Notes: generated by a model from the sequence alone, not told the origin. A DNA stretch of 64,000 bases from Ardenticatenaceae bacterium (GCA_020634215.1 JACKCD010000019.1:30975-94974), one strand, 5' to 3'. Counted from the first letter of the stretch, positions 45,157 through 63,455 are shown. Numbers and translations: made by a program.

Positions 45157-46179
45157 CTAAATGAGACGTAAACTAGGAGTCACATCCAGGTTAAGGGTAT
45201 CAAAACGGCCGTTTTTGAAAGCCCAATACGCGGCTGCCCCAATCATGGCCGCGTTGTCGGTGCAAAGGACGGGGGGGGGGTAGCGCACGGGCAAATCAAT
45301 TTGCTGGCTCATCGCCTGGCGTAGCGCCCGGTTGGCCGACACCCCCCCCGCCAGATGAACGGCCGTTACCCCATGTTCCTGCGCCGCCTGCACCGTCTTG
45401 CTCACCAGCGACTCCACTACGGCGGCCTGAAAGCTGGCGGCCAAATCATTCACAGGCAGACGGTTGCTTTCAAATTTTTTGGTTTGGCGCAAAACGGCCG
45501 TTTTCAGCCCGCTAAAACTAAAATTATACCCATGCTCGCTCTGCATCACGGCGCGGGGGAAGCGGTACGCCTGCGCGTTGCCCTGCGTCGCTGCCTTGTC
45601 AATGGCCGGCCCACCCGGATACGGCAGCCCCAGCAGCCGCCCCACTTTGTCAAACGCCTCACCCGCCGCATCATCCAGCGTCCCACCCAAATGCTCATAC
45701 ACCCCGTGGTCACGCATCAAATAAAGCTCGGTATGGCCGCCGCTTACCACTAGCGTCAGCAGCGGAAATTCAATCTCCGCCGCCGCTTCCGTTAGCCACA
45801 GCGAATAGATGTGGCCTTCGATGTGGTTGACCCCAATCAGCGGTTTGCGCCGCGCCAGCGCCAGCCCTTTGGCGGCGTTCACCCCCACCAGCAGCGATCC
45901 TACCAGCCCCGGCCCCTTCGTCACGGCAATGGCATCAAGGTCGTCATAGCCGATGTGGGCCTGCTGCATTGCCTGCCGAATGACGGCATAAATTAGCTCC
46001 ACATGCTTGCGCGAAGCCACTTCAGGAAAAACCCCGCCGTACTTAGCGTGTAAATCGGTTTGGCTGGCGATCACGTTGCTGAGCATCCGCGTACCGTTTT
46101 CAACCACGGCGGCGGCGGTTTCATCACACGATGTTTCTATCGCCAGAATGCGAATCATTTGTTTTTCGGGGGTGACCAT
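45157..46179 (-). CDS. tsaD: tRNA N6-adenosine threonylcarbamoyltransferase TsaD
   Basis: 340 aa. ILAIETSCDETAAAVV, GVNHIEGH and SGGHTEL motifs. Confidence 0.95.
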   Translation of the reverse strand: MVTPEKQMIRILAIETSCDETAAAVVENGTRMLSNVIASQTDLHAKYGGVFPEVASRKHVELIYAVIRQAMQQAHIGYDDLDAIAVTKGPGLVGSLLVGVNAAKGLALARRKPLIGVNHIEGHIYSLWLTEAAAEIEFPLLTLVVSGGHTELYLMRDHGVYEHLGGTLDDAAGEAFDKVGRLLGLPYPGGPAIDKAATQGNAQAYRFPRAVMQSEHGYNFSFSGLKTAVLRQTKKFESNRLPVNDLAASFQAAVVESLVSKTVQAAQEHGVTAVHLAGGVSANRALRQAMSQQIDLPVRYPPPVLCTDNAAMIGAAAYWAFKNGRFDTLNLDVTPSLRLI

Positions 46180-46303
46180 AGGGCTAATTCTATCCTTAAG
46201 GGTGGGCTTACGTGTAAAACAGATTACTTTTTGCTTGCAAAAGTACCCACAAAGTTCATAAAAATCTCATATAGATTTATCGAGGTTGTTTATGCTTGTT
46301 TGC

Positions 46304-46383
46304 AGATAGAGATTAGGAGACTCGGAGATTAAGAGATTATTGGATAGCCGTAGTCTCCCAGTCTCTTAGTCTCTCAATCTCCC
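46304..46383. repeat. Inverted array of GAGAYT-core 8-nt-period repeats
   Basis: Left arm GAGATTAG GAGACTCG GAGATTAA GAGATTAT. Right arm is the imperfect complement and overlaps the last 5 codons of selA. Confidence 0.75.
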
Positions 46384-47760
46384 ACACTGCTGGAGAATTG
46401 CTTGCAGCAGCGTCTCTTCCTGATTAGGCAGCACGGTGCGGGGGTCGAGGAGAAAACGGCCGTTTTGAATGCGCCCAATCACCGGTGGGTTGTTGCCGCG
46501 CAGCCGCGCAGCCAGTTCATCCGGGTTGGGGTGGGGCAGGGCCAGCAGCGTGGTGGGCAAGCTGGTGCCAGGCAATGAGCCGCCGCCGACGGTCGAACGG
46601 CCGTTAATCACCTCACACTCAATCCCGCTCTCTGCCAGTCGGGTTGCCCATTGCTCCGCCCGTGCCGTAATGGCAGCCAGCGGTGCCGCAATCATCTGCC
46701 ACACCGGAATCTGGGTCGTGGCTTGTTCCGCCGCATAATGGCGCAGCGTGGCCGCCAATGCTGCCAGACACAGCTTGTCAGCTCGCACCGCCCGCGCCAG
46801 CGGATGCCGCTTTAGCTGGGCGATCAGGTCGGCGCGGCCGCACAAAATGCCCGCCTGCGGCCCCCCCAGCAGCTTGTCGCCGCTAAACGCCACCACATCA
46901 CACCCGGCTTCCAACCCCTCCGTCACCGTCGGCTCTGGCTCCAGCCCATAGGGAGCCACGTCCAGCAGCGCCCCGCTCCCCTGGTCATAGAGCAGGGGCA
47001 ACTGGTGGGCGTGTGCCAGTTCGGCCAGTTCGGCCAGCGTTGGTTCGCTGGTAAAGCCGATGATTTTGTAGTTGGAGTGGTGGGCAACCAAAATGGCGGC
47101 GGTGTTGGCGCTGATGGCGTTGGCGTAGTCGCGCAGGTGGGTTTTGTTGGTGGTGCCAACTTCCACCAGCTTAGCCCCCGACTGCACCATCACGTCGGGG
47201 ATGCGGAAGCCGCCGCCGATTTCGACAAGCTGCCCCCGGCTGATGATGACTTCGCGCCCCTGGCAAAGGGTGGTGAGCATGAGCAGGACGGCGGCGGCGT
47301 TGTTGTTGACGACGAGGGAGGCGGCGGAGCCGGTAATCTGGTTGAGCAGTTGTTCGCCGTGGATGGTGCGGGAGCCGCGCTGTCCGGCTTCGGGGTCGTA
47401 TTCGAGGGTGGAGTAGGTGGAAGAAACGGCCGTTATTGCCGCCACTGCCCCCTCACTCAGCGGTGCCCGCCCCAAATTGGTGTGGACAATTACCCCCGTG
47501 CCGTTGATCACCGGTCGTAATGTGGCCCCAAACTGGTCGTCCAGCCACGCCTGCGCCAGCCCTAACAGGTCGCTGGCCGTTATGCTACCGTTCCCGCCGG
47601 ACAAAATGTGCTGTCGCCGCTGGTCAAGGGTATGGCGCAACGCTTCGGTGGTCAATAAACGGCCGTATTCCCCCACCAGCCCCTCCGCTTGCAGCAGCAA
47701 TTTGTCCACGCTGGGCAGGTGACGTAAAAGGGAGCGATTATTGGGGTTATCGTTGTTCAT
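46366..47760 (-). CDS. selA: L-seryl-tRNA(Sec) selenium transferase SelA
   Basis: 464 aa. N-terminal LRHLPSVDKLL. PLP-lysine region VAFSGDKLLGGPQAG. Confidence 0.9.
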   Translation of the reverse strand: MNNDNPNNRSLLRHLPSVDKLLLQAEGLVGEYGRLLTTEALRHTLDQRRQHILSGGNGSITASDLLGLAQAWLDDQFGATLRPVINGTGVIVHTNLGRAPLSEGAVAAITAVSSTYSTLEYDPEAGQRGSRTIHGEQLLNQITGSAASLVVNNNAAAVLLMLTTLCQGREVIISRGQLVEIGGGFRIPDVMVQSGAKLVEVGTTNKTHLRDYANAISANTAAILVAHHSNYKIIGFTSEPTLAELAELAHAHQLPLLYDQGSGALLDVAPYGLEPEPTVTEGLEAGCDVVAFSGDKLLGGPQAGILCGRADLIAQLKRHPLARAVRADKLCLAALAATLRHYAAEQATTQIPVWQMIAAPLAAITARAEQWATRLAESGIECEVINGRSTVGGGSLPGTSLPTTLLALPHPNPDELAARLRGNNPPVIGRIQNGRFLLDPRTVLPNQEETLLQAILQQCGRLRD

Positions 47761-47767
47761 ACGAGAG

Positions 47768-47838
47768 AGTAATCGGTAATCAGTAATCGGTAATCAGTGA
47801 CCTCGTTACTGATTACCGATTACCGATTACTGATTACT
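47768..47838. repeat. Inverted array of GTAATC-core heptamer repeats (long hairpin)
   Basis: AGTAATC GGTAATC AGTAATC GGTAATC AGT - loop - complement. Lies between the selA start and the stop of the upstream membrane-protein gene. Confidence 0.85.
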
Positions 47839-48310
47839 GTAGCTGTGCGGCCCGCGTGCGGACTTGCAGCAGAAATTCAAACAAAATAAAGACGACTGCT
47901 ACCAAAATGACGATGGCGATGCCGAGGGTGCGGTTCATTTGCAGCCAGGTACAGAAGGCGATCCACAGCCCCACCCACATCGCCTGCCGCAGCGTGAGCA
48001 GGAAGCCGGGGGTTTGGCTAGAGCCGCTGAACCGTTTGTTGAGGAAAAAGACAAAGGGCAGCACCAGCCCGGTGACGGCCACGAGGACGGCGGCGAGAAA
48101 GGCGAGGATGATTTCGCTGTTGGCGGCGGCCATCAGGGTGGGGGCATCAATGGTGCCTTGCGCCGTAGCCCGCACCAAATCCAGCCGCTCCACGTCAAAC
48201 GGCCACCAGTTGTCCACAATGTGGTTGAGCGACAGCAGCCCCAGCCCCAGCAGGCTGAGGCCAAACAGCAGGGAGGGGATGACGCCGAGGCGGGTGAGGA
48301 ATCCTTTCAT
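47834..48310 (-). CDS. Small integral membrane protein of unknown function
   Basis: 158 aa with four hydrophobic segments. No motif recognised. The same-length plus-strand ORFs are shadows. Confidence 0.55.
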   Translation of the reverse strand: MKGFLTRLGVIPSLLFGLSLLGLGLLSLNHIVDNWWPFDVERLDLVRATAQGTIDAPTLMAAANSEIILAFLAAVLVAVTGLVLPFVFFLNKRFSGSSQTPGFLLTLRQAMWVGLWIAFCTWLQMNRTLGIAIVILVAVVFILFEFLLQVRTRAAQLQ

Positions 48311-48395: not shown

Positions 48396-48560
48396 GGGGC
48401 GGGATGACCGGGGGTAAAGCTGGCAACGCCGCTGGCCTTTTCTCCCGGTCGTCTCGCCCATGTATTGTCCAAACACACCGTTTTCGGCCACCACAAGGGC
48501 GAGACGGCGCGGAGACAGCACCATTTGTTCACCTTGCGCTTATCCGCGCCATCCCGCCCC
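48396..48560 (+). ncRNA. Candidate structured RNA or DNA element: perfect four-way junction (cloverleaf) of unknown class
   Basis: P1 48396-48406/48550-48560 (11 bp). P2 48407-48414/48442-48449 (8 bp, one G-U). P3 48450-48459/48497-48506 (10 bp). P4 48507-48513/48543-48549 (7 bp). The helices abut with no unpaired junction nucleotides. Confidence 0.45.
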
Positions 48561-48657
48561 CACCCTTAGCTGGCCCTTTGAACCGGATTTTTGGGGTTGA
48601 AAGCGCGGCTACAACCTGCTAGACTGCTGCCAACCAAACCGCCAGAGGCACTGCCCG

Positions 48658-51600: not shown

Positions 51601-52119
51601 AAAATGGTGAACTTTGGGACTTACTATGCGGGGGAACATCATGAGGGAGACAGAACGCAGGTGGGCGACATTACCGAGGCCACCGGAATAGCTGTTGGCA
51701 GAAAGAGCCGGGCCAGCGTGGGCAGCAGCCTCCCGCCCACCCCGCCCCCGCTGACAGAAGCAGAGCAAGCGGAGCTGGCTGCCCTCGCCACCCACAAACA
51801 ACTGCTTGAGCGCCCCCTGCGGCTGTGGGCGCGGGTGGCAGCGGTGGGGTATGTGCTGCTGTATGTGGGGTTGCTGCTGCTGGTTTGGTGGCTGCTCAAC
51901 AAGCTGGTGGCGTGGCAAAGCTGGGACACGCTGGAGCCGTATACGTGGATTGTAAGCGTGGTGATGGCTCTGGCCGCACCGCTGCTCGTCTGGTTGGCTC
52001 CAGACCGGCTTAGCCCATACGCGCTGAGGGATTGGCTATTTGCGCGGCTGCAGCGGCGCAGCTTTGAGAAACATGGGTTCAAGCTGGAACGGTATGAGGC
52101 ACTGCGGGCAAGGGTGTAG
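48658..52119 (+). CDS. ROCO protein: LRR array, Roc GTPase, COR domain and a C-terminal two-helix TM region
   Basis: 1153 aa. 22-aa LRR units LQTLDLSSNPISDLSFLSGLGQ. Roc motifs GEGMAGKTS, WDFGGQE, NKMD. C-terminal hydrophobic helices VAAVGYVLLYVGLLLLVWWLL and WIVSVVMALAAPLLVWLA. Confidence 0.85.
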   Translation: MNDRDIIQQIEQILDRRLFLKPYEPDKLRGKKSFCLNEAGQVIHLGLPQCGLNDALISQLSPMLQQLGQLQTLSLRNNQISDLSFLSGLGQLQTLDLSSNPISDLSFLSGLGQLQTLDLSSNPISDLSFLSGLGQLQTLDLSSNPISDLSFLSGLGQLQTLDLSSNPISDLSFLSGLGQLQTLDLSSNPISDLSFLSGLGQLQTLDLSSNPISDLSFLSGLGQLQTLDLSSNPISDLSFLSGLGQLQTLDLSSNPISDLSFLSGLGQLQTLDLSSNPISDLSFLSGLGQLQTLDLSSNPISDLSFLSGLGQLQTLDLSSNPISDLSFLSGLGQLQTLDLSSNPISDLSFLSGLGQLQTLDLSSNPISDLSFLSGLGQLQTLDLSSNQISDLSFLQHLPALEQVDLAKNKLTELPAWITEKGLGIDVISKYGGNHGDIRLAENPIATPPLEIVQQGKAAIRAYFRSLEGQETVQLNEVKLLLVGEGMAGKTSLLKRLQGLPFDAQESQTHGINVVTLPAASISGLEAHADLAECQLHCWDFGGQEIMHASHQFFLSQRALYILVIDSRTDDKKHHWLKHIEKFGGKSSPLIVAMNKMDINPGYNVEQNSLNSSFPSIKNRFVRLSCHTEAGLPDLIHHIAAAIPETSLFGSPISVAWMNVKNQLERETASKRYISQARFLAICQENNVHDRDSQQTLLQYLHDLGIVLYFKQLNLASIYVLDPHWVTIGVYKIINSEKVVEGRLQESDLDYILNEEPIKKQEYDPASKQSIRYSLDEQRYILNIMQQFELCYLYNERRREYIIPSQLPKEINSEPNLDEGTPLRFIMRYDYLPATIIPRTMIDFRNDIEPGQQWRFGMVLQNSSTQCRAKIKADEQKKSIEITVQGEAHRKREYFAIIRHTLRDISSEFENLQIEEWIPLPGHPDFLVEYQVLLGHEQEKREEYFDGKLRKSFPVSQLLDSVISPADRQRDSHLLNDMLRDAKMVNFGTYYAGEHHEGDRTQVGDITEATGIAVGRKSRASVGSSLPPTPPPLTEAEQAELAALATHKQLLERPLRLWARVAAVGYVLLYVGLLLLVWWLLNKLVAWQSWDTLEPYTWIVSVVMALAAPLLVWLAPDRLSPYALRDWLFARLQRRSFEKHGFKLERYEALRARV
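48901..49758 (+). repeat. 13 perfect tandem copies of a 66-bp unit (in-frame LRR repeats), flanked by diverged copies
   Basis: The unit start GACCTCTCG recurs at 48901 + 66n for n = 0 to 13. The 14th unit has two substitutions (NQISD). Confidence 0.9.
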
Positions 52120-52129
52120 CAGTTGCGTT

Positions 52130-53263
52130 TCAGGCTCTTTTCATTTCGAGCGCAGATAACGGGAGGCCAAAAAAGTGGGCAAGCTGGGTGGCGTAGTGGG
52201 AAACGGTTTCTGTCAACCTTTCCCCACACCATTCCTCAAACAGTTCCACCGTAACACCAATCCCGCTGTCTGACCGATCATACCGCCAGGTTCCCACAAT
52301 GCGGCCATGCTCCAGCACAACCCCCTCAATGTGCCCGGCCGGCCGCCACACCCGTTTGTAATACGCCATATCAATCAGCCAACTTTTTTCCCGGTGCCCC
52401 AGCAGCAGCGGTTCAAAGCGGTAAAGCAGCCGAATCGGCCACGCTTCCCGTTCCGGCGGCGTTTCGGCCATCGCCTCCAGGTCGGAGAGCAGTGCCAGCA
52501 TTGGCGTTCCCGCCGCGTCCAATTCCACCACCCCCTCGCCCAGTGCCTTCAGCCAGCGGCGAATGTCGCTCAGATTACGGCCGCGCCAATAGCCAATGTC
52601 CTGCACCGTGGCCGGGCCATAGGCGTGGAGAAAACGCCACACCAGCTCAATGTTGGCTGCCTCGGCGTTGGGCGGTACCCATTTCAGGTCGGGTAGCCAA
52701 TAGTCGCGGTGGGCAAACAGCCCCTCGCTGCCGTCCCGCCCAGCGTGGCAGGCGTGGCCGCGATAGACCAAATCGCGGAAGATGCCGCCCCAGGCGGAAA
52801 AAAGATCGCCGTGAACATCCAAATCGCTGTCGCGCAGGTCGCTGCGCCCCATGATTCCCCGTTGCCGCAGCAGTTCGGCCAAATCGGCCACCAATTGCTG
52901 GTATTGGGCGTGGTCTACGCCGCTTTTCACCGCCCGCAGCTCTTGCCACGCCACTTCCAAAGGCATGGCAGCGTGGATGAGCGCCCATTCACGGCTGGTG
53001 TAAAGATGGAGCGTTTGCCGCTGCCCCCATAGCTTGACCAAGCTGCGTTCGGTAAACAGCATCTCTTCAAAGCGGGCGTAGGTTAACCCGGTGGTGCGGT
53101 TCCACAGGGAAATGGCGGCGGCGGGGAGGATTTGGGCTTGGATGCCAGCGAGGGTGGAAACGGCCGTTGTGACAGCTTCTGTCAACACCCCATCAAACGG
53201 CTTCACCAGCCCCGACCGCCGCAGCCGAAACCAGCGAATTTGCGCTTCTGTCAGTCGAATCAT
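52130..53263 (-). CDS. Winged-helix DUF1006 (HTH_42) protein, AlkZ/YcaQ-family DNA glycosylase-like
   Basis: 377 aa. N-terminal MIRLTEAQIRWFRLRRSGL. A QxQ motif in LAGIQAQILP. Overall family resemblance only. Confidence 0.6.
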   Translation of the reverse strand: MIRLTEAQIRWFRLRRSGLVKPFDGVLTEAVTTAVSTLAGIQAQILPAAAISLWNRTTGLTYARFEEMLFTERSLVKLWGQRQTLHLYTSREWALIHAAMPLEVAWQELRAVKSGVDHAQYQQLVADLAELLRQRGIMGRSDLRDSDLDVHGDLFSAWGGIFRDLVYRGHACHAGRDGSEGLFAHRDYWLPDLKWVPPNAEAANIELVWRFLHAYGPATVQDIGYWRGRNLSDIRRWLKALGEGVVELDAAGTPMLALLSDLEAMAETPPEREAWPIRLLYRFEPLLLGHREKSWLIDMAYYKRVWRPAGHIEGVVLEHGRIVGTWRYDRSDSGIGVTVELFEEWCGERLTETVSHYATQLAHFFGLPLSALEMKRA

Positions 53264-53276
53264 TGGACGTTACAGA

Positions 53277-53310
53277 AGAAGTTCAACTTCTTTTGAGAAG
53301 TTGAACTTCT
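53277..53310. repeat. 34-nt perfect hairpin element, copy 2 (loop TTTG)
   Basis: AGAAGTTCAACTTCT-TTTG-AGAAGTTGAACTTCT. 13 nt upstream of the minus-strand start at 53263. Confidence 0.9.
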
Positions 53311-53437
53311 AAATAGGTATTTGCAAGGCCAGGAGGGTCTGGTTGTTAGCCTGGTAGCCAACGAGGAAATAGTTGTCAATCATAGGGTGTAGCTTAAGGA
53401 AATTATCCACCTGCTCAAAATAAATTGCAATGAGAGA

Positions 53438-56400
53438 TCAAGTTATCCCCAATTTACGAAGTCGGCTACGAATAGCGGATGGCTGACGTTCCAACAGGTT
53501 GGAGATGGCCTGCGTACCATGGTGGTTGATAAAAAGCTGTCGCAACTTTTCATCTTCTTCGTTTGACCAGGTTTCGTAAGCACGGGGATAGCTGGCCTTG
53601 ATTTGGTTTAACCGCTCGTGGTAGGCGGATGTGGTGGCATATACAGGATCGGGTTGTTCGGTCGTTTCTAGCCAGTAAATGAGCCGCATGATGTGGAGTT
53701 CGTCGAACTCGATGGTCTCGTTGAAGGCATCGAAGTAGGGGCGCAGATAATCGGTGTCGAGTTCGGCGAATTTTTGGAGAACGGCCGTTTGCACCTCCTC
53801 CATCAAACCCGAAGCCATCCGTAGCTTCTCCACAGGTAGCCTATTTCCAGCCTCCACATAGTTGCTCAAATGTCCCAAAATCGTCCTTCGCTTTACAGCA
53901 TAATTCGCCATTAACGCCTCGATAGATTGTCCGTTAGCAAAGGCTTCTCCCACCTCTTCCCAGCGGGATTTGCTAATGGTGGTGCGGTGGGGCTGGGCAG
54001 CAGGGCGGGATGGGGCGATTTTAGGCTTTTCGCTCAAGTTATTTTTGGCGCAAAAATTACGGATGAGAGGTAGGAAGATGTCGGCATATTGTTCTACTTT
54101 GGCTTGGCCGATGCCGTGTAACTGGCTAAAGGTGTTGGCTGAATGGGGGAAGTAGGTTGCCATTTCTTGTAAGGCACGGTCGGGGAAGATGACGTAGGGA
54201 GGAACGCCAACCTGGTCGGCCAGTTCCTTGCGTTTTTGGCGCAGGAGGTGGAAGAGGGTGGGGTCGTAAACGGCCGTTTCCATTTCCACGCTCCTTATCA
54301 CTTGTTTGGCTAATTGGCCCCACACTTTTGCCTCATTTTTGAGTACGGACCAAGCGGCATTGGTTAGCTTAAGGCCGCCATGTTCTTGGTCTTGGACGAG
54401 TAGCCCTTGCTGAATGAATTGGCGGGCTAAATGTTGCCAATCACTTTTGGAGAATTCGCGGCCGATGCTGTAGGCGGAGAGGCGATCATGCCCTTTTTGC
54501 AACACTTTTTGGGAACGGGAGCCGCGAAGCACGTCAATGATGTGGTTTATGCCGTATAGCTGGCCGGTGCGGTAGGCGCAGGAGAGAAATTTTTGGGCGG
54601 GGATGGTGAGATCGTCTAGTTCGTGTTTTTCACGTAGACAGTTGTCACACATCTGGCAATTATCTTTGGGGTAATTTTCGCCAAAGTAGGCGATGAGTTG
54701 TTGGCGGCGGCAAACGGCCGTTTCTGCCCAACTCACCATCGTTTGTAAACGCGCCTCGCTGCCACGCTGCTCAGATTCTGCCCCTTGTTTAATGAAGCGA
54801 CGAATCGTTGCCACATCGCCGTAGTCAAAGAGCAGCAGACAGTTGGAGCGGAGGCCATCGCGCCCAGCCCGGCCAATTTGCTGGTAATAATGCTCCATGT
54901 TTTGCGGCAAATCTACATGTAGGATGAAGCGCACATCGGGTTTGTCTATGCCCATGCCAAAGGCGATGGTGGCGACCATGATTGGCACATTGTCGCGGAT
55001 GAAGGCCGTTTGGTTGTGGCTGCGCGTAGCATTGTCCAGGCCAGCGTGGTAAGGTAGCACGGATAACCCTCGGTTGGTTAATTCTTCGGTTAGGGTATCT
55101 ACCGTCTTGCGGGTGGCGCAATAGATAATGCCCGATTGGTCGGGATGGGCGGCGATGAAGTTGAGAGTCTGCTCCAGGGTGTTGGTCTTGGGGGCGACTT
55201 CGATGAAGAGGTTGGGGCGGTCGAAGCTGGCGATGAAGGTGTTGCGCTCCTTGAAGTTGAGGCTTTGCTGGATGTCTTGCTGGACGCGAGGTGTAGCGGT
55301 GGCAGTAAGGGCGACGGTGACGATGTGGGGTAGCCGCTGGCGCACGGTGACGAGTTGGCGGTATTCGGGGCGAAAGTCGTGGCCCCATTGGGAGATGCAG
55401 TGGGCTTCGTCTATGGCGAGGCAGGCGAGATTGCTTTGTTCGAGGAGGAGCAGGGTTTCGGGTCGCAGCAGGGTTTCGGGGGCGACGTAGAGCAGTTTGA
55501 CGTGGCCTTGGCGGATGGCTTGGCTGGTTTTGAGGTATTGGAGATAGCTGAGGGTGCTGTTGAGGAAAACGGCCGTTATTCCTACCGCCTGCAACTGCGA
55601 CACCTGATCTTGCATGAGGGAAATAAGGGGTGAAACAACGACGGTGAGGCCATCAAACAGCAATGCCGGAATCTGATAGCAAAGTGATTTGCCGCCACCG
55701 GTGGGCATGATGACGAGCGTATCTCGCTTTTTCAGGACGTTGTTAATGATTTCAGCCTGGATGGGGCGGAACTCTTCGTAGCCAAAGATGGTTTGCAGAA
55801 CTTCTTGAGGAGATTGGAGATTAGAGACTGGAGATTGGGAAATGGGGAGATTGAAGGGAATGGATTGGGGTGTGTCAAAATAGTGGACTTCATCAGATAA
55901 CGGGTAGTCGGGCAGCCAGAGATCATCATCGTCGTAGGTGGGCAGGAACCAGCCGGAAAGTTGGAGGTAGCAGCGGGGTTCTTCGGCCGACCGATCTGCG
56001 GGCTGCCACCAATGCGCCAGGGATACGCGCAATAGCGTGCCTGCGGGAATCTCCTCCGGCGGTTCTTGGAAGCCGACGAAGGTAAGGGTACGTCCGCCAT
56101 TAGCGGTGGGGTAGCGGTAGCGGATGCGTTTGCCCTCGGTGTCTCGCACTAATAGTTGATCGGGTCGCCAAAACATGGTGCTATAGGTGGGGATGCCTCC
56201 TTTTTCGCTGATATACATAGCCCCCGTCTCTCTGTGTTGCACCAAACCATCATAGAGGACATCCAGGCCGCCCGTTTTGGGCGGCATATGTTTTTCGATG
56301 AAGGGGATGATGCCAGACAGGGGAGCGAGGCGGACTTTGTGCTGGATGAGGACATCTTCGGTGTGGGGAAGGGGGCGATGGGAGAGAACGGCCGTTTCCA

Positions 56401-56554
56401 CCTCCCACACGTCCCCCACTTCAAACACCATGTTGGCGCGTTCATTGCTCTCCATGTCTGGCGCAACCAGGCGCACACTTTGTCCGGCAAAGGTAATGCC
56501 ACCAATACAGGCCCTTCCCCCCATTCTCGTTTTAGCGACGATTAAAACTTTCAT
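53438..56554 (-). CDS. recQ: RecQ-family DNA helicase with an about 250-aa N-terminal extension and extra C-terminal HTH-like domains
   Basis: 1038 aa. The RecQ core starts at LQTIFGYEEFRPIQ. Motifs MPTGGGKS and DEAHCISQWGHDFRPEY. Zn-binding CRRQ...CQMCDNC. HRDC (LRQKRKELADQVGVPPYVIF). The N-terminal MKVLIVAKTRMGGRACIGGI... region was not recognised with confidence. Confidence 0.9.
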   Translation of the reverse strand: MKVLIVAKTRMGGRACIGGITFAGQSVRLVAPDMESNERANMVFEVGDVWEVETAVLSHRPLPHTEDVLIQHKVRLAPLSGIIPFIEKHMPPKTGGLDVLYDGLVQHRETGAMYISEKGGIPTYSTMFWRPDQLLVRDTEGKRIRYRYPTANGGRTLTFVGFQEPPEEIPAGTLLRVSLAHWWQPADRSAEEPRCYLQLSGWFLPTYDDDDLWLPDYPLSDEVHYFDTPQSIPFNLPISQSPVSNLQSPQEVLQTIFGYEEFRPIQAEIINNVLKKRDTLVIMPTGGGKSLCYQIPALLFDGLTVVVSPLISLMQDQVSQLQAVGITAVFLNSTLSYLQYLKTSQAIRQGHVKLLYVAPETLLRPETLLLLEQSNLACLAIDEAHCISQWGHDFRPEYRQLVTVRQRLPHIVTVALTATATPRVQQDIQQSLNFKERNTFIASFDRPNLFIEVAPKTNTLEQTLNFIAAHPDQSGIIYCATRKTVDTLTEELTNRGLSVLPYHAGLDNATRSHNQTAFIRDNVPIMVATIAFGMGIDKPDVRFILHVDLPQNMEHYYQQIGRAGRDGLRSNCLLLFDYGDVATIRRFIKQGAESEQRGSEARLQTMVSWAETAVCRRQQLIAYFGENYPKDNCQMCDNCLREKHELDDLTIPAQKFLSCAYRTGQLYGINHIIDVLRGSRSQKVLQKGHDRLSAYSIGREFSKSDWQHLARQFIQQGLLVQDQEHGGLKLTNAAWSVLKNEAKVWGQLAKQVIRSVEMETAVYDPTLFHLLRQKRKELADQVGVPPYVIFPDRALQEMATYFPHSANTFSQLHGIGQAKVEQYADIFLPLIRNFCAKNNLSEKPKIAPSRPAAQPHRTTISKSRWEEVGEAFANGQSIEALMANYAVKRRTILGHLSNYVEAGNRLPVEKLRMASGLMEEVQTAVLQKFAELDTDYLRPYFDAFNETIEFDELHIMRLIYWLETTEQPDPVYATTSAYHERLNQIKASYPRAYETWSNEEDEKLRQLFINHHGTQAISNLLERQPSAIRSRLRKLGIT

Positions 56555-56578
56555 GAGCGACTGGATAATGAGTGATTT

Positions 56579-56612
56579 AGAAGTTCAACTTCTTTGGAGA
56601 AGTTGAACTTCT
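56579..56612. repeat. 34-nt perfect hairpin element, copy 3 (loop TTGG)
   Basis: AGAAGTTCAACTTCT-TTGG-AGAAGTTGAACTTCT. 24 nt upstream of the recQ start at 56554. Confidence 0.9.
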
Positions 56613-56640
56613 TGCTTACCTATGGTTGAATGATGACTTA

Positions 56641-57135
56641 CTACACATCCGGCAGTAAATGCGCCACTTCTAGCTGGTACGCCTCCGCTAATTTGTTAGC
56701 CACAAGGGAGCGATGACAGGCAGTTGGCTCCCGCTCTACACAAAAAAGGGCGATGGTCTGGGCAGCGTCAGGTAGGGCATCTAGCAGCGATTGGGACTGA
56801 AACTGAGACAAGATTTCGGCTTCGTAGGCCGCGATGAAGGTGTCGGAAAGAGCGGTGCGTTGACGTTTAGCGGTTTTGCTGGCTTTATCGGCCGCCTCTT
56901 GGCGGGCGCGAACGGCTTGGCTGGGGGCTAAATCTTGCAGATGCAAGTAACGGATACCCATTTCGGCCAATCGAGCTTGCAAACGCTGGCTGTTGGCAAA
57001 GGCGTACTGAGAGTCACGCACCCCGCGTCGCCGCCGAATATCGCAAAAGGTGTCTACCCCAGCCTCAGTCAACGCGGCAAAAAAGCCCTCTTCTGTAAAC
57101 CCATAAACGCCAATGGTCACAATTTTCAGCTTCAT
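56641..57135 (-). CDS. DUF488-family protein
   Basis: 164 aa. IVTIGVYGFTEEGFF...CDIRRRR...ALFCVEREPTACHRSLV. Confidence 0.75.
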   Translation of the reverse strand: MKLKIVTIGVYGFTEEGFFAALTEAGVDTFCDIRRRRGVRDSQYAFANSQRLQARLAEMGIRYLHLQDLAPSQAVRARQEAADKASKTAKRQRTALSDTFIAAYEAEILSQFQSQSLLDALPDAAQTIALFCVEREPTACHRSLVANKLAEAYQLEVAHLLPDV

Positions 57136-57785
57136 TCTATCTCCTCTGCTCCGGCGTTCCTTTGCTCCCCTGCTTCTTCATATCGTTTACGCGACGTGAA
57201 GGTATGTTCCCCAAAGAGGCTCAGCTGCCCAGCGGTGAGGCGGTTGATAACGGCCGTTTGCCCCACCACCTCATTATTCTCATCAATATGCGCTACGGGA
57301 ATCTCTAACTGGGTCAGCGTTGCTCCGATTAACTTGCTGCGGTGGCATGTTTCTGGCTTGCCCTCACTGCACATGAGCATCACAGCCTGCTGCTGTTGAA
57401 AGGCGGTTTGCAGACGGCCGATCCCTGCCTGATAAAAAGCCGTTTGCTTTACCTTCTCATAATCCACCTTGCCATCTGTGTAACAACTGGTATCAGACGG
57501 CCGGCCGCCCAAGCTGTCGCCCATAAAAACGTAGCGAATCCCTGCTGCCTGTAAAGCCTCTGGCAAAGACTCCTTGCCAAACTCTGGTTTATAGCGGGAG
57601 TAGGGGGCAGAGCGAATGTCAATGAGGTAGGCGATGTGGTGTTGTTGGAGAACGGCCGTAAAATCCGCCAACGACCGACTGCCATAACCGATGGTGTAGA
57701 TAGGGATTAACTGTCCGAGCATGAAGCGATTATAATCCAGCCTGGCTGTTATGACGACAAAAGGAGACGAGAAATCGTTCAGCAA
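57132..57785 (-). CDS. DUF488-family protein (second paralog); likely start at ATG 57722
   Basis: IYTIGYGSRSLADF...LIDIRSAPYSRYKPEF...MLMCSEGKPETCHRSKL. 4-nt overlap with the downstream DUF488 gene. Confidence 0.75.
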   Translation of the reverse strand: MLNDFSSPFVVITARLDYNRFMLGQLIPIYTIGYGSRSLADFTAVLQQHHIAYLIDIRSAPYSRYKPEFGKESLPEALQAAGIRYVFMGDSLGGRPSDTSCYTDGKVDYEKVKQTAFYQAGIGRLQTAFQQQQAVMLMCSEGKPETCHRSKLIGATLTQLEIPVAHIDENNEVVGQTAVINRLTAGQLSLFGEHTFTSRKRYEEAGEQRNAGAEEIE

Positions 57786-57857
57786 TCAGTGACTTATCGT
57801 GTGCTGAGCTGGCTATTTTGACGATTATACTTGTTGGTAAAAAGCGAGGATAAACAG

Positions 57858-59801
57858 ATGTTTGGCAGGCCAGTTACTTATATTTTTAGTGGATGTTTGT
57901 GTTTGCTGATAATTTTTATGGCTGGTTGTGTGCCGAGAGAGGAGGAAGTGGCAGAAACGGCCGTTGTAAAGGTGGTGAGTACGGAAACGGCCGTTGCCAC
58001 TCCCATCGCTACCCTCCCCATCAACATGACCCGTCAAGTTATCTCGACTCTTACCCCCACCATTCCTGCCACGCTATTGCCTACCGTCACTCCTGCTTCC
58101 TCACCGACGGCCACGCCAATTCCCTTACCACTCCCACCGATGCAACCCTTCCCAACAGTTACACCTGATTATCCTTTTCATGAAACAAAACAAATTTTCT
58201 TGTTTTATGGTGATGTAGGTGGAGATGGTACTGGCTCTCTTGGTAACACACTGCCTTCTTTGGTGATTTATAACGATGGGCAATTGCTCATGGAAGTTGG
58301 TGATTGGCAGACCAGAGTCATCATGGAATCCAATCTCTCACCAAATGAGATGTGTGATTTACGAGAGAAAATTGCTGCCACTGGGTTCATGAACCCTCAT
58401 GATCCGTTTGAATACTTTACACAGCAGGATGGGAGTGCAGGCGCAACAAATATAGTTATTCAGGTGGAAGACACATTTTATTCATTTTACAGCCCCGATG
58501 TGGACTATTTGGTAGATGATTTAGCCAGCGGTTATGAGATCATAAAGAATTTTCAACCGATACAGCCTCTTGCACCCTATATCCCGGAACAATTTCTTGT
58601 TTCGTTGGAAGAATGGCCTTACGAAACGGAAACTGAGCCAATTGTTTGGCCTGAGGATTTGCCACTTTTAGCTGATTTGCGACCTGATCCTGGGCAAGAC
58701 CTTTTTGTTATTGAGAATGATCTCCTAATATCAATTTTTGACCTGTTTTCACGACAAATCTCAGTACGCTCTTTTCAAGAGGATGAAATTGTATACACGA
58801 TGCTTATCCGCCCTATTTTGCCGCATGAGACATTACAAAATGCCCTGGCTTATCCTCGCCGACCTAAGGATTATGTGCCTGTCTTAAATTGTGAAGATGA
58901 ACCCTCGCTCATTTCGTCTGCAATTCCTACAGCAACGCCAACGTTAACGGCCGATCTCACGCAACTAGTTGGACAAGGCCGCATCCTGTTTGTAACCGAC
59001 AATGATGGTGATGAAGAGATTTTTGTCATGGAAGCCGACGGCACAAATCGCCAGCGTTTGACAAATAATTTGGCTGATGATTTCTCGCCAAGCTGGTTTC
59101 CAGATGGACAGCACATCGTTTTTGCTTCAGATCGTGATGGAGATAGTGAAATTTATGTCATGGCCGCCGATGGAACAAATGTTGTACAACTCACAAATAA
59201 CGATGTAAGTGACTATGCTCCAGCTATTTCCCCTGATGGTGAACAAATTGCTTTTGTATCTGACAGGAACGGTGGATGGCAAGTATCATCGGAAATTTAC
59301 GTGATGCGTTTTGATGGTTCTCAACTACGTCGCCTGACAGACAACGATAGTCGTGATTTGGATCCTGAATGGTCAGCGGATGGCAGTCAAATATTGTTTG
59401 CACAGGAAGTTCAGTTTAATGAACTGTATAAAGTGGTTACTGTCGGTGTCGAGAGTTTAGAAACAACTGAAGTTTTGCGTGCATTTGATTATCGAAACAA
59501 CAATCCTCGTCCTATTTGGTCGGTGGATGGTTCTCATTTTGTTTGGGCTAAGCAAGTTGATGATGCTCATTCGGTTATTCAAATCATGGATAGCGCAGGC
59601 GTTTTGCAGCAAGAGATCGCGTTCCAATCAACTTATTTTCGCTCCATAAGTTGGTCATCTGATGGGCGAACTGTTCTGTTCTCCGCACGAGAGTATGGAG
59701 ATTGGGATATGGAACTATACGTTCTTGTTGTAGATGCTGGTGAAATCATTCAAATCACGCATAATCAGCAAGATGAATTTGGTGCTGTTTGGTGGCCGTA
59801 G
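57858..59801 (+). CDS. Lipoprotein with a C-terminal TolB-like PD40 beta-propeller
   Basis: Lipobox LLIIFMAGC. Pro/Thr linker. Repeated PD40 units (FSPSWFPDGQHIVFASDRDGDSEIYVM, YAPAISPDGEQIAFVSDRNG..., DPEWSADGSQILFA). GAGGA RBS before ATG 57858. Confidence 0.75.
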   Translation: MFGRPVTYIFSGCLCLLIIFMAGCVPREEEVAETAVVKVVSTETAVATPIATLPINMTRQVISTLTPTIPATLLPTVTPASSPTATPIPLPLPPMQPFPTVTPDYPFHETKQIFLFYGDVGGDGTGSLGNTLPSLVIYNDGQLLMEVGDWQTRVIMESNLSPNEMCDLREKIAATGFMNPHDPFEYFTQQDGSAGATNIVIQVEDTFYSFYSPDVDYLVDDLASGYEIIKNFQPIQPLAPYIPEQFLVSLEEWPYETETEPIVWPEDLPLLADLRPDPGQDLFVIENDLLISIFDLFSRQISVRSFQEDEIVYTMLIRPILPHETLQNALAYPRRPKDYVPVLNCEDEPSLISSAIPTATPTLTADLTQLVGQGRILFVTDNDGDEEIFVMEADGTNRQRLTNNLADDFSPSWFPDGQHIVFASDRDGDSEIYVMAADGTNVVQLTNNDVSDYAPAISPDGEQIAFVSDRNGGWQVSSEIYVMRFDGSQLRRLTDNDSRDLDPEWSADGSQILFAQEVQFNELYKVVTVGVESLETTEVLRAFDYRNNNPRPIWSVDGSHFVWAKQVDDAHSVIQIMDSAGVLQQEIAFQSTYFRSISWSSDGRTVLFSAREYGDWDMELYVLVVDAGEIIQITHNQQDEFGAVWWP

Positions 59802-59813
59802 CGTAATGGCCGC

Positions 59814-59919
59814 AAACGGCCGTTGTGAGAGCCGCTGTCAACACCCCCTCAAACGGCTCCACCAGCCCTGACCGCCGCAACCGATACCAGCGAATTTGGG
59901 CTTCTGTCAGTCGAATCAT
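59814..59919 (-). pseudogene. Relic of the first 35 codons of an AlkZ/YcaQ-like gene
   Basis: MIRLTEAQIRWYRLRRSGLVEPFEGVLTAALTTAV. About 92% nt identity (9 mismatches by eye) with 53158-53264. Homology ends abruptly. ATGA overlap with the stop of the 59916-60317 gene. Confidence 0.75.
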
Positions 59920-60317
59920 TGCTCTTGCTCTAACAAGTGCAGCAGTGCTAGCCCGTATGCTTCGCTGGCGCTGGTGGCGGTAAAGTGGTGGCGATTGTTG
60001 AGGATGCAGGTGATGGTAACGGCCGTTTGTTGCAGCGTACATTCCGCCACCCGTTGCCCAATTTGTTCCCGCAGCTGCGTTTCTGTAGGCAACCACACCA
60101 CCTCATGCGTCCAAATATGATCAAGCGCCCATTCCGTTGCTCCCGCAAAAGCGACCACCGGCCAGCCGCGCAGCAGGTCAAGATAAGCCATCGTATCGCT
60201 GAGAACAAAAACCTGCTCGTCCAGACCACTCACTGGAACTGCAAAAAAATCATGGTTTTGCGCCATCCATATCAACCCAGCCTCTTTAAGCCGTTGTGCT
60301 AATGCCAGAGAAATCAT
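59916..60317 (-). CDS. Hypothetical protein (133 aa)
   Basis: ATG-initiated ORF with no motif recognised. Translationally coupled (ATGA) to the ycaQ-like relic. Confidence 0.45.
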   Translation of the reverse strand: MISLALAQRLKEAGLIWMAQNHDFFAVPVSGLDEQVFVLSDTMAYLDLLRGWPVVAFAGATEWALDHIWTHEVVWLPTETQLREQIGQRVAECTLQQTAVTITCILNNRHHFTATSASEAYGLALLHLLEQEQ

Positions 60318-60320
60318 AAT

Positions 60321-63300
60321 TTGCTTTCATCACCCTTCACCCATAAGATCACGCCTATGGATGAACTGCCGCCCTATTTTACGCATCTTCACGTACATTC
60401 CCACTATTCGCTGCTGGGTGGAACCGCCGCCGTGCCGGATTTGGTGGCGCGGGCGGTGGCGGAGGGGCGGCGAGCATTGACGCTCACCGACAGCGCCGCC
60501 CTCTATGGGGCCGTTGCCCTGCACAAAGCGTGCCGCGCCGCCAACATTCAGCCCATCATTGGCCTTACCCTCCCCATTGCCACCCCCGCCGAAGATTTGG
60601 CCGAGCAAACCACGCCGGGGCAGGTGGTGCTGCTGGCGCAAAACCCCGCTGGCTATCGCTCCCTGTGCCGCCTCGCTTCGCAGTTGGACGGGGCGCAGCC
60701 GGTGGAATTGGGCTTGTTGCGCGATTTTAGCGAGGGTGTTATTTGTCTGGACGGTGGGCGGCGGGGCTGGATCAACCGCTTTGTGCGGGCGGGTAACACG
60801 GCGGCGGCGGTGCGCTATGCGTCGCGGCTGGCGGCGATTTTTCAGGAGAATGGGTATGTGGGGGTGGAATTAACGGCCGTTTCCCCCCGCCGCCACACCC
60901 AAGACCTGCTCAAAATTGGCGCACGTTTTGGCCTAGCTCCCGTGGCTCTGCAGCCTGTTTACTGCCTGGAACCCGATGAGCGGGAGATGCTGCGGCTGCT
61001 AACGGCCGTTTCCCACAACTGCACCCTTGACGAACTCAACCCCGTTTTGCTGCCCGACGAGGGAGAAACGGCCGTTGACCTCCACTGGCTGCCCCCCGAC
61101 GAGATGCTGGCGCGGTACGCCGACCTGCCCGAAGCCCTCACCAACGCCGCCGAAATCGTCAAACAGTGCGAGCCGTCACTGCCAGACGGCCGTTCCATCT
61201 GGCCCGCCCTCAAGCTGCCCGACGGCCAAAGCAGCGACGAGGCATTGGCCGAATGGGTGCGAGTGGGGCTGGGCGACCATTTTCTTGACGGGCTGGATGC
61301 GGCGGGAGAGCAGCGACTGCGGCGTGAATTGGAAGCATTGCGGGCGCGGGGGTTGGCTCCCCTCTTTTTGGTCGTGGCCGACATTGTGGGGTTTGCCCGC
61401 CAGCTTGATATTCCCGTCAACACGCGGGGTAGCGTCGCCAATTCGCTCGTTGCTTACTGCCTCGGCATCACCACCGTCAACCCGCTCGTCCATGACCTGC
61501 TGTTTGAGCGGTTTCTCAACCCCGCCCGCGCCAACTTGCCTGACATTGACCTCGATTTTTGCAGCCGCCGCCGCGACGAGGTGCTGGATTATGTGCGCCA
61601 AACGTATGGCGAGGATCGGGTGGCGCTGGTGGCGACGGTCAACACCCTCAAGCCCAAGTCGGCGGTGCGCGAGGTTGCCAAGGCGTTTGGGCTGCCGGAG
61701 AGCCGCATTGGCAAGCTGGCTGCGCTGGTGCCGCACCGCGATTGGCACCCCGACCCGCGCCGCCGCGAGACAGCTTTGCTCGATGACCTGCTGGCGCAGC
61801 TTGACGACCCGCAGGAGCAGGCAATCTTTCGCGCCGCCTTTCAACTCATCGGACAGCCGGATCACCTCAGCGTTCACCCCGGCGGCATCGTCATCACCCC
61901 CGGCCCACTCACCGACGTGGTGCCGGTGCAGATGGCACCGAAGGGGTTTCTCATTACCCAGTACGATCACCGCGACGTGGAGGCGATTGGGCTGCCGAAG
62001 ATTGATTTGCTGGGGATTCGGGCGTTGACGGTGCTGGCCGATGCTGCCGAACTGGTGCGAACCCACCACGCGCCGTCGTTTCGGCTGGGGCAGATTGGGC
62101 AGGGGGATGAAAAAACGGCCGTTTTGCTCGCCACCGCCGACACCATTGGCGTGTTCCAATGCGAATCCACCGGGGCGCAGCGCACCCTGCGCCAGCTTCG
62201 CGCCCGCAGCGTGGCCGATCTCGCCATTGCCAACGCCTTTTTCAAGCCCGGCCCGGCCACCGGCGGCATGGCAAAAAGTTTTGTCCGCCGCTATCGGGGC
62301 GAGGAGGCGGTCAGCTATTTGCACCCAACGTTGCAGCCGATTTTGGGCAAGACGCAGGGGGTGCTGCTCTTTCAGGAGCAAATTCTGCGTATAGCCACCG
62401 AGATCGCCGGGTTAAGCTGGCAGGAAGCCGACCATTTACGGCGGGGGATGAGCAAATTTTTGGCGCGGGAGATGGCGGCACTGCGGACGCGCTTTGTCAC
62501 GGGGTGCCAGCGGCAGGCAGGGTTTACGCCGGAGCAAGCGGAGACGCTGTGGCAGCAGGTGATGGCCTTTGCCGGATACGGCTTCAACCAGGGTCACGCC
62601 ACGGCGTATGCGGCGGTGAGTTATGAGTCGGCCTATTTGAAAGCCCACTGGCCGGCCGAATTTCTCTGTGCGCGGCTGGCCGATGCCGGTGGCTTCCACC
62701 ATCAGGCGATTTACGTGGCCGAGGCGCGGCGGCTGGGCATCACGGTGCGGCCGCCGCATGTGAATGCGAGTGGGCGGAAGTTTGTGCTGTCGTATGAAGA
62801 GCGTGGGGCGTGGGGAGTAGGGAGTACGCCACACCCCACACGCCACACCCCACACCCCACGCTTTGGATGGGCCTCGGCCAAGTCCGTGACCTGCGGCGC
62901 AAAAGTGTGGCGGCGATTCGGGCGGAACGGCCGTTTGCCAACCTGCGTGATCTGCTGGCGCGGGTGGCGTTGCAAGACAAGGAAGTGGTGCACCTCATCC
63001 AGTGCGGGGCGCTGGATGGGCTGGGGGAGAGCCGAGCGGCGCTGCTGGCGGAGGCGCGGGGGGTGGCGCGGGCGGGGAGTGCGCGGCAGTTGAGCTTTGG
63101 CTTTGCGCTGGAAACGGCCGTTTTGCCCGACACCGCTGCCGAACGGGCCGAATGGGAACGCCATCTGCTGGGGTATCCGGTGAGCGTGCAGCCCGGCGAT
63201 TTGGTTGCGCCCCCAGCCGAGGCGGTTCCGCTGCGCGAGCTGCCGCAAACGCGGGGCAAGCTGGTGACAATTGCTGGCTGGCGGCTGCCCGGCTGGACGG

Positions 63301-63455
63301 GTGGGCGCGGCTTTTATTTTGGCGACGGCGACAGCTTTGTGGTGGTGCGGGAGGCAACAGAGGGGGGAAAGGTGCGGAAATCGTGGCAGCCGGTGGTGAT
63401 TAACGGCCGTTGGCGCAGCGATGAGTGGGGGAATGGGGTGTTTCAGGTAGGATAG
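60321..63455 (+). CDS. dnaE: DNA polymerase III alpha subunit DnaE; likely start at ATG 60357
   Basis: PHP domain FTHLHVHSHYSLLGG. Polymerase core (PDIDLDF, GIVITP, GLPKIDLLG, NQGHATAY). OB-fold region. Confidence 0.95.
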   Translation: MLSSPFTHKITPMDELPPYFTHLHVHSHYSLLGGTAAVPDLVARAVAEGRRALTLTDSAALYGAVALHKACRAANIQPIIGLTLPIATPAEDLAEQTTPGQVVLLAQNPAGYRSLCRLASQLDGAQPVELGLLRDFSEGVICLDGGRRGWINRFVRAGNTAAAVRYASRLAAIFQENGYVGVELTAVSPRRHTQDLLKIGARFGLAPVALQPVYCLEPDEREMLRLLTAVSHNCTLDELNPVLLPDEGETAVDLHWLPPDEMLARYADLPEALTNAAEIVKQCEPSLPDGRSIWPALKLPDGQSSDEALAEWVRVGLGDHFLDGLDAAGEQRLRRELEALRARGLAPLFLVVADIVGFARQLDIPVNTRGSVANSLVAYCLGITTVNPLVHDLLFERFLNPARANLPDIDLDFCSRRRDEVLDYVRQTYGEDRVALVATVNTLKPKSAVREVAKAFGLPESRIGKLAALVPHRDWHPDPRRRETALLDDLLAQLDDPQEQAIFRAAFQLIGQPDHLSVHPGGIVITPGPLTDVVPVQMAPKGFLITQYDHRDVEAIGLPKIDLLGIRALTVLADAAELVRTHHAPSFRLGQIGQGDEKTAVLLATADTIGVFQCESTGAQRTLRQLRARSVADLAIANAFFKPGPATGGMAKSFVRRYRGEEAVSYLHPTLQPILGKTQGVLLFQEQILRIATEIAGLSWQEADHLRRGMSKFLAREMAALRTRFVTGCQRQAGFTPEQAETLWQQVMAFAGYGFNQGHATAYAAVSYESAYLKAHWPAEFLCARLADAGGFHHQAIYVAEARRLGITVRPPHVNASGRKFVLSYEERGAWGVGSTPHPTRHTPHPTLWMGLGQVRDLRRKSVAAIRAERPFANLRDLLARVALQDKEVVHLIQCGALDGLGESRAALLAEARGVARAGSARQLSFGFALETAVLPDTAAERAEWERHLLGYPVSVQPGDLVAPPAEAVPLRELPQTRGKLVTIAGWRLPGWTGGRGFYFGDGDSFVVVREATEGGKVRKSWQPVVINGRWRSDEWGNGVFQVG
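62801..62862. repeat. GTGGGG/CCCCAC short-period inverted repeat inserted in frame in dnaE
   Basis: GCGTGGGGCGTGGGGAGTAGGGAGT ACGCCACACCCCACACGCCACACCCCACACCCCACGC, encoding RGAWGVGSTPHPTRHTPHPT. Confidence 0.8.

Follow-up and report, generated by a model that had tools for sequence, protein, structure and literature searches.

Replacement of a gene end at the site of integration is known from the element e14 and from phage 21 at the icd gene of Escherichia coli. Here, we describe a locus of comparable layout in an Ardenticatenaceae bacterium, located in a stretch of 64,000 nucleotides (nt) that we refer to as the window (GCA_020634215.1 JACKCD010000019.1:30975-94974, which is C24:30975-94974 among the contigs of the genome). 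The genome itself, G000, is a Chloroflexota metagenome-assembled genome from a family of the Promineifilaceae/Ardenticatenaceae type, comprising 5.76 Mb in 112 contigs with a completeness of 86.6%, and the organism comes from activated sludge and its DNA is found in sequencing runs from nine studies. In the window, the first 35 codons of a gene for a putative DNA glycosylase of the AlkZ/YcaQ family are present twice in the same orientation, once at the head of the intact gene and once, on the far side of 6.5 kb of other genes, as a stub that overlaps the end of a conserved gene of 133 codons, which we named p133. As at icd, a segment is thus flanked by a direct duplication of the target end, with the gene intact on one side and a dead stub on the other, and the two copies are similar rather than identical. 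In contrast to icd, it is the 5' end that is duplicated, neither an integrase nor phage genes are present, no presence/absence polymorphism was seen in the genomes and sequencing runs compared, diverged lineages share the same fixed arrangement, and the cargo consists of cellular repair genes. We consider it moderately probable that the locus is the scar of an old rearrangement, in which an insertion into a p133-AlkZ gene pair duplicated the 5' end of AlkZ and the two copies were then homogenised by gene conversion.

Proteins of the AlkZ/YcaQ family (HTH_42, PF06224) are DNA glycosylases acting on interstrand crosslinks (PMC7367128; PMC9040887), and their catalytic motif is (H/Q)-phi-(D/Q) (PMC9040887). 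The intact protein of the window spans the entire PF06224 profile, with residues 35-364 on positions 1-329 of 329 (173.5 bits, E 1.2e-50), and its QAQ motif (residues 41-43) aligns to the QAQ of AlkZ of Streptomyces sahachiroi (5UUJ; E 5e-24). It is therefore a predicted glycosylase with the AlkZ-type Q-phi-Q instead of the Q-phi-D motif of YcaQ, but unlike AlkZ its gene is part of a DUF488-DUF488-RecQ array and not of a biosynthetic cluster. G000 has only one full-length AlkZ-type gene, and the closest AlkZ protein is P0001 (93%). A second system that has to be considered is the cyanobacterial palindrome HIP1 (GCGATCGC), for which indications of site-specific and illegitimate recombination were summarised by Elhai 2015 (PMC4390886).

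The duplicated start of the AlkZ-like gene

The two copies align over 108 nt without any gap, with 99 identical and nine mismatched positions, corresponding to 91.7% identity (MAFFT and repeat finder, family D3), and no further copy is present in the 112 contigs searched. A preliminary description of the window, made from the sequence alone, had noted a same-orientation duplication of about 92% comprising the first 35 codons of the intact gene and had suggested an alignment of both copies as a check; the similarity held, and the repeat is 108 nt long instead of 107 nt. With the start codons at 53263-53261 and 59919-59917, the homology reaches just 2 nt upstream of either ATG. The inner edge of the repeat coincides exactly with a copy of an iterated palindrome, as AAACGGCCGTT begins at 53158 and at 59814. 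Three of the codon differences between the copies are synonymous and five are non-synonymous, but these are too few sites to call the stub more than "not obviously constrained". A clade-specific insertion of 15 nt in the AlkZ N-terminus forms a small hairpin adjoining the palindrome in both repeat copies (53169-53192 and 59825-59848), which in the intact copy reads TGACAG-AAG-CTGTCA.

The AlkZ-derived part of the stub ends at residue 35, six residues before the position of QAQ, and since the motif is absent the stub cannot be a glycosylase. The following tail of 19 codons consists of a 12-nt spacer and of the antisense of the 3' end of a gene for a PD40-repeat lipoprotein, so that the last 47 nt of the stub (59755-59801) lie antisense to the end of PD40, whose stop codon is at 59799-59801. 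On its other side, the ATG of the stub overlaps the stop codon of p133 (TGA, 59918-59916) in the sequence ATGA at 59916-59919. Both the dead stub and its stop-start overlap with the 133-codon gene had been described before and are confirmed. No terminator was detected in the stub region or in the spacer between RecQ and AlkZ, and the only promoter-like site, a weak one, is on the minus strand at 53430-53402.

Stub and intact gene vary together

The intact AlkZ proteins of the clade have two types of N-termini, a long one (...PFDGVLTEAVTTAVSTLAG), which is found in the window, P0001, P0244, and P0248, and a short one (...PFEEVETAVSTLAG), which is found in L135/P0249 and others. Since all outgroups are of the short type, the long type is derived, by an insertion of 15 nt. 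When short proteins were searched with the stub peptide, stub open reading frames (ORFs) were found in other assemblies, namely five long-type alleles of 54 amino acids (aa) and one short-type allele of 49 aa. The long-type stubs have a common junction and tail, ...TAV followed by CGHYATATKQHQIH[L/P]ADYA, and the short-type stub (P0269) proceeds from ...VETAV to FRHYATATKQHQIHPADYA with the same tail. Across all 35 residues, the stubs P0271 and P0272 are identical to the intact alleles P0244/P0248 and P0001, respectively. The window stub and P0273 represent a more diverged version (E24, A29, L31), and P0001 has Y12 and E21 like the window stub, together with D24, E29, and V31 like the intact gene of the window.

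As the junction is common to the long and the short lineage and the N-terminus of the stub nevertheless tracks the type of the intact gene, the copies appear to be subject to homogenisation, for which recurrent non-allelic gene conversion between the 106-108-nt copies would be the simplest reading. Similar to known cases in which short dispersed repeats evolve in concert by non-allelic conversion, from pseudogene to gene or from gene to pseudogene, a stub and a gene part 6.5 kb away from each other co-vary, including a 15-nt indel, and are identical in some strains. In contrast to those systems, the tract is very short (about 106 nt), an adaptive role such as antigenic variation is not apparent, and the evidence is at the protein level. 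If the copies are homogenised, their identity of 92% is not a clock.

Age of the arrangement

A metagenome contig scan yielded a related locus, L135, a 9.1-kb section of the record WBZL01002021.1 (20.2 kb). The locus is arranged as DUF488b, DUF488a, RecQ (862 aa), hairpin, AlkZ (376 aa), 2-hydroxyacid dehydrogenase, o176, selA, and tsaD, and it is collinear with the window at 82.5-89% nt identity, with 84% in AlkZ. According to this comparison, the RecQ-hairpin-AlkZ junction is older than a nt divergence of about 16%, which is twice that between the repeat copies, and vertical inheritance of the arrangement through at least this divergence is the best explanation. Also in line with it, a contig size of 2968 bp is recorded in ENA for a p133 protein and for a stub protein. 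It had been proposed that the event is either old or that the donor was a close relative. The first part stands, as the order is shared with L135, whereas the second cannot be taken from the repeat, since 92% identity says nothing about age or donor.

A recent import, which comes close to the second part of that proposal, would nevertheless account for several features. A segment PD40-DUF488-DUF488-RecQ-AlkZ of a close relative might have entered a recipient with p133-AlkZ by homology-facilitated illegitimate recombination, with the homologous anchor in AlkZ or to the left of it and the illegitimate join at the palindrome. The 8% difference would then reflect the divergence of donor and recipient. 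The structure, which could arise in one step with an 11-nt microhomology, fits such an event, and the AlkZ 5' ends are mosaic among strains. However, the identical junction and tail are found in at least six stub alleles including that of the short-type lineage, and the RecQ-AlkZ order is common at 84% nt identity, so that the junction is far older than 8% would imply. We therefore regard a recent import as highly improbable.

The iterated palindrome at the inner boundary

The palindrome AACGGCCGTT occurs 7054 times in the 5.76 Mb of G000 (1.22 per kb), compared to about six copies expected from base composition. It is present in coding regions and frequent in many genomes of the family. Since only 1-2% of the positions in the window coincide with a copy or are no more than 2 nt away from one, the inner repeat boundary would coincide with a palindrome by chance with a probability of about 1-2%, which is suggestive for a single observation. 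Two other breakpoints between window and L135, a difference of 525 nt in the C-terminus of RecQ and the exchange of a ROCO gene and the dehydrogenase gene, are not located at palindromes, and it follows that there is no general rule but one data point. Like the cyanobacteria with HIP1, G000 has a hyper-abundant short GC-rich palindrome, one copy of which is exactly at a rearrangement breakpoint. Differently from HIP1, the palindrome has another sequence and belongs to Chloroflexota, only a single breakpoint is concerned, and the link is statistical instead of experimental.

Four other GC-rich 8-mer palindromes that were counted are nearly absent from the genome, with one copy of GCGATCGC, two of ACGCGCGT, one of AGGGCCCT, and none of ACCGCGGT, although about 120 of each are expected. 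The pattern resembles a strong avoidance of palindromes, from which a single, hyper-abundant one is exempt.

Gene order in relatives and the origin of the stub

To define the surroundings of p133 in the family, its homologues were aligned and 80 related loci were compared. In 46 of these, a gene of about 165 codons (o176) and selA come after p133 on the same strand, with tsaD coming next in 37 of the 46, and a DnaE-family gene is divergently upstream of p133 in 25 of the 80. In the window, the DnaE-family gene adjoins p133 as well, but o176, selA, and tsaD are located at 48310-45163. Compared with the conserved order p133-o176-selA, the window therefore has 11.5 kb of additional DNA, reaching from the stub to the ROCO gene. 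All of this interval is to be seen as a variable island, and the 6.5-kb block makes up only part of it.

Among 159 other genomes of the family, an AlkZ orthologue was found only in genus g19, in three out of five genomes (G019, G099, and G102), and in all three p133 is immediately upstream of AlkZ with a stop/start overlap TGATG. This overlap supports the view that the stub marks a former AlkZ gene coupled to p133, and the coupling is plausibly ancestral to the clade of the window. The preliminary description had considered such an ancestral coupling probable and had proposed to look for the uninterrupted pair in relatives. The pair does exist in g19, yet it is not ancestral to the family as a whole, in which p133 is mostly followed by o176-selA. 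Elsewhere in the class, ten AlkZ orthologue loci were examined in nine genomes from other families, and neither p133 nor RecQ adjoins AlkZ at any of them. Together with the three loci of g19, this means that RecQ-AlkZ adjacency is found at none of 13 orthologue loci outside the clade. G001, which belongs to the same genus as G000 and is 86% complete, contains no AlkZ, p133, selA or DnaE-family gene of this kind, hence it offers no synteny comparison.

An insertion could have proceeded as follows. The ancestor of the clade would have had a gene for an AlkZ-type glycosylase that was translationally coupled to p133. A segment with PD40 on the opposite strand and DUF488-DUF488-RecQ would then have been placed between p133 and the body of AlkZ, with the join at codon 35 coinciding exactly with a copy of the palindrome, which may have served as crossover point. 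Codons 1-35 would have been left on both sides by a Campbell-type, att-type or other duplicative insertion. One copy would have become the head of the intact gene behind RecQ, with the hairpin and the promoter-like site upstream, and the other would have been kept as the dead stub of 54 codons overlapping the p133 stop. Repeated homogenisation of the 106-108-nt copies by non-allelic gene conversion may finally have led to 92% identity here and to identical proteins in some strains. Insertion is favoured because p133-AlkZ adjacency exists outside the clade and RecQ-AlkZ adjacency does not, and because a single event suffices.

Alternatively, two full copies of AlkZ might have been present 6.5 kb apart, one coupled to p133 and one with the RecQ block, and the former might have lost its part beyond codon 35, either because a stretch between two palindrome copies was deleted or because this part was replaced when PD40 arrived. 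Such a truncation naturally explains a breakpoint exactly at the palindrome and 12 nt past the PD40 stop, and HIP1 has been linked to illegitimate and site-specific recombination (PMC4390886). Moreover, homology that ends at the ATG fits two genes with different upstream contexts, and PD40 is atypical in GC content (44%) and strain-variable. However, this route needs two events as well as a source with RecQ-AlkZ adjacency, which is the very adjacency missing from the 13 loci, and neither an AlkZ 3' remnant near PD40 nor an extant relative with two full copies was found. Thus, a truncated second copy is possible but unlikely.

Several observations weigh against an old insertion followed by conversion. 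No empty p133-AlkZ site was recovered in this clade, and the insertion origin is accordingly an argument from parsimony. AlkZ of g19 is just 47-54% identical to the window protein, although other families reach 60% and unassigned metagenome proteins 64%, so that the p133-AlkZ coupling may be convergent or the gene may have been transferred instead of the pair being inherited vertically. Furthermore, the co-variation was seen in proteins of called ORFs, with an ascertainment bias towards open frames, and no given stub is linked to the intact allele of the same genome. In L135, p133 is apparently absent from the 2.9 kb on the upstream side of DUF488b, since the database records place none of its homologues on a contig of 20210 bp, and this lineage may thus differ from the window beyond the far end of the block. 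Finally, the palindrome at the breakpoint is a case observed once.

The intervening block and the question of mobility

According to Pfam, the ORFs of the block encode RecQ, two DUF488 proteins, and the PD40 protein only, which together occupy about 6.2 of 6.55 kb. The contents were as given in the preliminary description, namely a hairpin copy, recQ, a second hairpin copy, two DUF488 genes, and the PD40 lipoprotein gene, and the same is true for the palindrome density, which equals that of the genome, and for the lack of an integrase. Neither an integrase nor a recombinase is present in the block or among the neighbouring AlkZ, ROCO, p133, and DnaE-family genes, and the dense packing of the block leaves no room for one. 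Palindrome density and GC content of the block had been considered as a test for foreign origin; this was uninformative, since the palindrome is common across the family. The block has no second copy in G000, and searches among plasmids and phages gave no match beyond the RecQ core. RecQ and DUF488 paralogues of 60-62% aa identity are located in a core DUF488-RecQ locus of the same genome (C13:90454-93126).

These results bear on the idea that the block inserted while supplying a replacement 5' end, as integrative elements do. The proposed topology remains the most economical one, but the comparison with integrative elements suffers from the missing integrase, from the search of the block elsewhere, which gave no second copy and no plasmid or phage relative, and from the gene order being fixed in a relative. 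A site-specific integrative cassette at the AlkZ 5' end, the integrase of which was lost or which now leaves and re-enters by host homologous recombination between the repeats, would have in its favour that direct repeats flanking a block with the gene restored are the hallmark topology, and that a recombinase might recognise the palindromic core at the inner boundary. Its cargo, however, consists of cellular repair genes, for which the genome has a core paralogue at another locus.

For evidence of block-less cells, Logan contigs of four sequencing runs, which are short, were mapped to positions 51000-62000 of the window. In two runs containing a strain of about 95% identity, the contig with the AlkZ body ends at 53187, i.e., at the boundary plus 29, and a 589-nt contig spans 59814-60401. 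Such contig ends at the repeat boundary are expected if near-identical copies share 31-mers in the k=31 graph, and we attribute them to homogenised repeats. Together with an about twofold depth of the flanks they had initially been taken as a sign of a strain with uninterrupted p133-AlkZ, which was dropped once stubs identical to intact alleles had been found. The depth of the block contigs is about half of that of the flanking contigs in two runs, which is compatible with a block-less sub-population, but an assembler that merged the flanks of two strains would explain it equally well. No trustworthy joint skipping 53265-59920 was reported in the short Logan contigs of the four runs, and the joints that were listed have short sides or lie at palindromes or hairpins and were treated as spurious. 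As a weak proxy, the sizes of recorded contigs were compared, and p133 and full-length AlkZ of the clade are on contigs of equal size only at 100194 and 75934 bp. Taken together, an integrative cassette is very unlikely.

Hardly more probable is a cassette run by host recombination, in which the block would pop out and in via the 108-nt repeats and thereby switch AlkZ between p133-coupled expression and expression from the RecQ array, with the palindrome as hotspot; we rate it as very unlikely as well. In a weaker form of this idea, the stub could donate sequence by conversion and so diversify the glycosylase N-terminus.

Features of the locus and neighbouring genes

The coordinates of all features are summarised in Table 1.

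Table 1. Features of the AlkZ-p133 locus and its surroundings in the window.
Feature	Position	Strand	Description
o176-selA-tsaD	45163..48310	-	Far edge of variable island; directly after p133 in most relatives
Intact AlkZ/YcaQ-family (PF06224) predicted glycosylase gene	52130..53263	-	377 aa, QAQ at residues 41-43
Proximal repeat copy	53158..53265	-	Codons 1-35 of AlkZ-like gene and 2 nt 5' of ATG (53263)
Iterated palindrome AACGGCCGTT, intact copy	53159..53168		Inner repeat boundary; codons T-A-V 33-35
Intervening block	53266..59813		6548 nt, GC 50.4%, palindrome density 1.22 per kb (genome average)
Hairpin, 34 nt	53277..53310		13 nt upstream of AlkZ ATG; same place in L135
DuOB-RecQ helicase gene	53438..56554	-	1038 aa; 62% aa paralogue in core DUF488-RecQ locus, contig C13
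Second hairpin copy	56579..56612		Upstream of recQ
DUF488 gene a	56641..57135	-	164 aa
DUF488 gene b	57132..57785	-	217 aa
PD40-repeat lipoprotein gene	57831..59801	+	GC 44%, convergent with stub; 5' two-thirds strain-variable
Stub ORF	59755..59919	-	54 codons and stop TGA 59757-59755; codons 1-35 AlkZ-derived
Distal repeat copy	59814..59921	-	AlkZ-derived part of stub; 91.7% identical to proximal copy
Iterated palindrome AACGGCCGTT, stub copy	59815..59824		With flanking A (AAACGGCCGTT, from 59814) starts 12 nt past PD40 stop
p133	59916..60317	-	Conserved, 133 aa, no Pfam/NCBIfam family; upstream partner of AlkZ in genus g19
DnaE-family polymerase gene	60321..63455	+	Divergent from p133

The closest relative of the window p133 is P0121 (95%). 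The p133 family spans Chloroflexota and Actinomycetota, and some NCBI records label p133 as "pilus assembly protein CpaE", a name that looks doubtful. In an AlphaFold2 model (pLDDT 80), the C-terminal half of p133 (residues 78-133) adopts an alpha-beta3-alpha fold, for which a fold search gave a modest match to domains binding double-stranded RNA (Z 7.6, root-mean-square deviation 1.7 over 54 residues) but pointed to no function. The C-terminal half may thus resemble such a domain, as far as this model goes.

The 34-nt hairpin upstream of AlkZ belongs to a dispersed element that occurs about 35 times in G000. The RecQ gene of the window has about 525 extra nt near its C-terminus (53487-54011, in the region of an HTH_40 match), which are missing in the 862-aa RecQ of L135. 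In G001, the counterpart of the C13 locus is a single DUF488-RecQ fusion of 915 aa (C12:425.3-428.1 kb). The PD40 protein starts with a lipobox-like N-terminus (...FMAGC). In run X3, contig depth over the 5' two-thirds of its gene (57973-59073) is 2- to 10-fold below that of the flanking DNA, and one variant contig runs from 57783 directly to 59515. The gene hence appears to be strain-variable, with its 3' end, and therefore the tail of the stub, being conserved.

The DnaE-family gene encodes a second paralogue of the pol III alpha subunit, which shares 30% identity with the paralogue on contig C65 and falls below the NCBIfam cut-offs for both the replicative DnaE and the error-prone DnaE2. 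At the other edge of the variable island, a palindromic repeat of about 70 nt, found on both strands, is located between selA and o176 (47769-47840), and dozens of copies with about 80-94% identity are present in G001. The ROCO (LRR-Roc-COR) gene and a cloverleaf repeat upstream of it (48396-52119 in the window) are replaced in L135 (5141-6139) by the gene for a 2-hydroxyacid dehydrogenase of 332 aa, and a Logan contig of 7.9 kb from the 95% strain is likewise unmatched to the window downstream of AlkZ. The ROCO gene is a lineage-specific insertion, to which its lack of palindromes fits.

Implications

The current understanding of genome rearrangement is left unchanged by this locus, which is best seen as an ordinary old rearrangement and not as a recent insertion of a mobile element. 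It does show how a short duplicated gene start can mislead: an identity of 92% suggests a recent event or a close donor, and yet the junction is older than about 16% divergence. The DUF488-DUF488-RecQ-AlkZ array is a conserved unit within a variable island near a DnaE-family polymerase gene, which makes it relevant to a candidate repair module. If AACGGCCGTT acts as a recombination hotspot, the locus would provide the first evidence from a breakpoint for a HIP-like sequence beyond the cyanobacteria, and one concrete breakpoint at a hyper-abundant palindrome of Chloroflexota is a lead on what such palindromes do.

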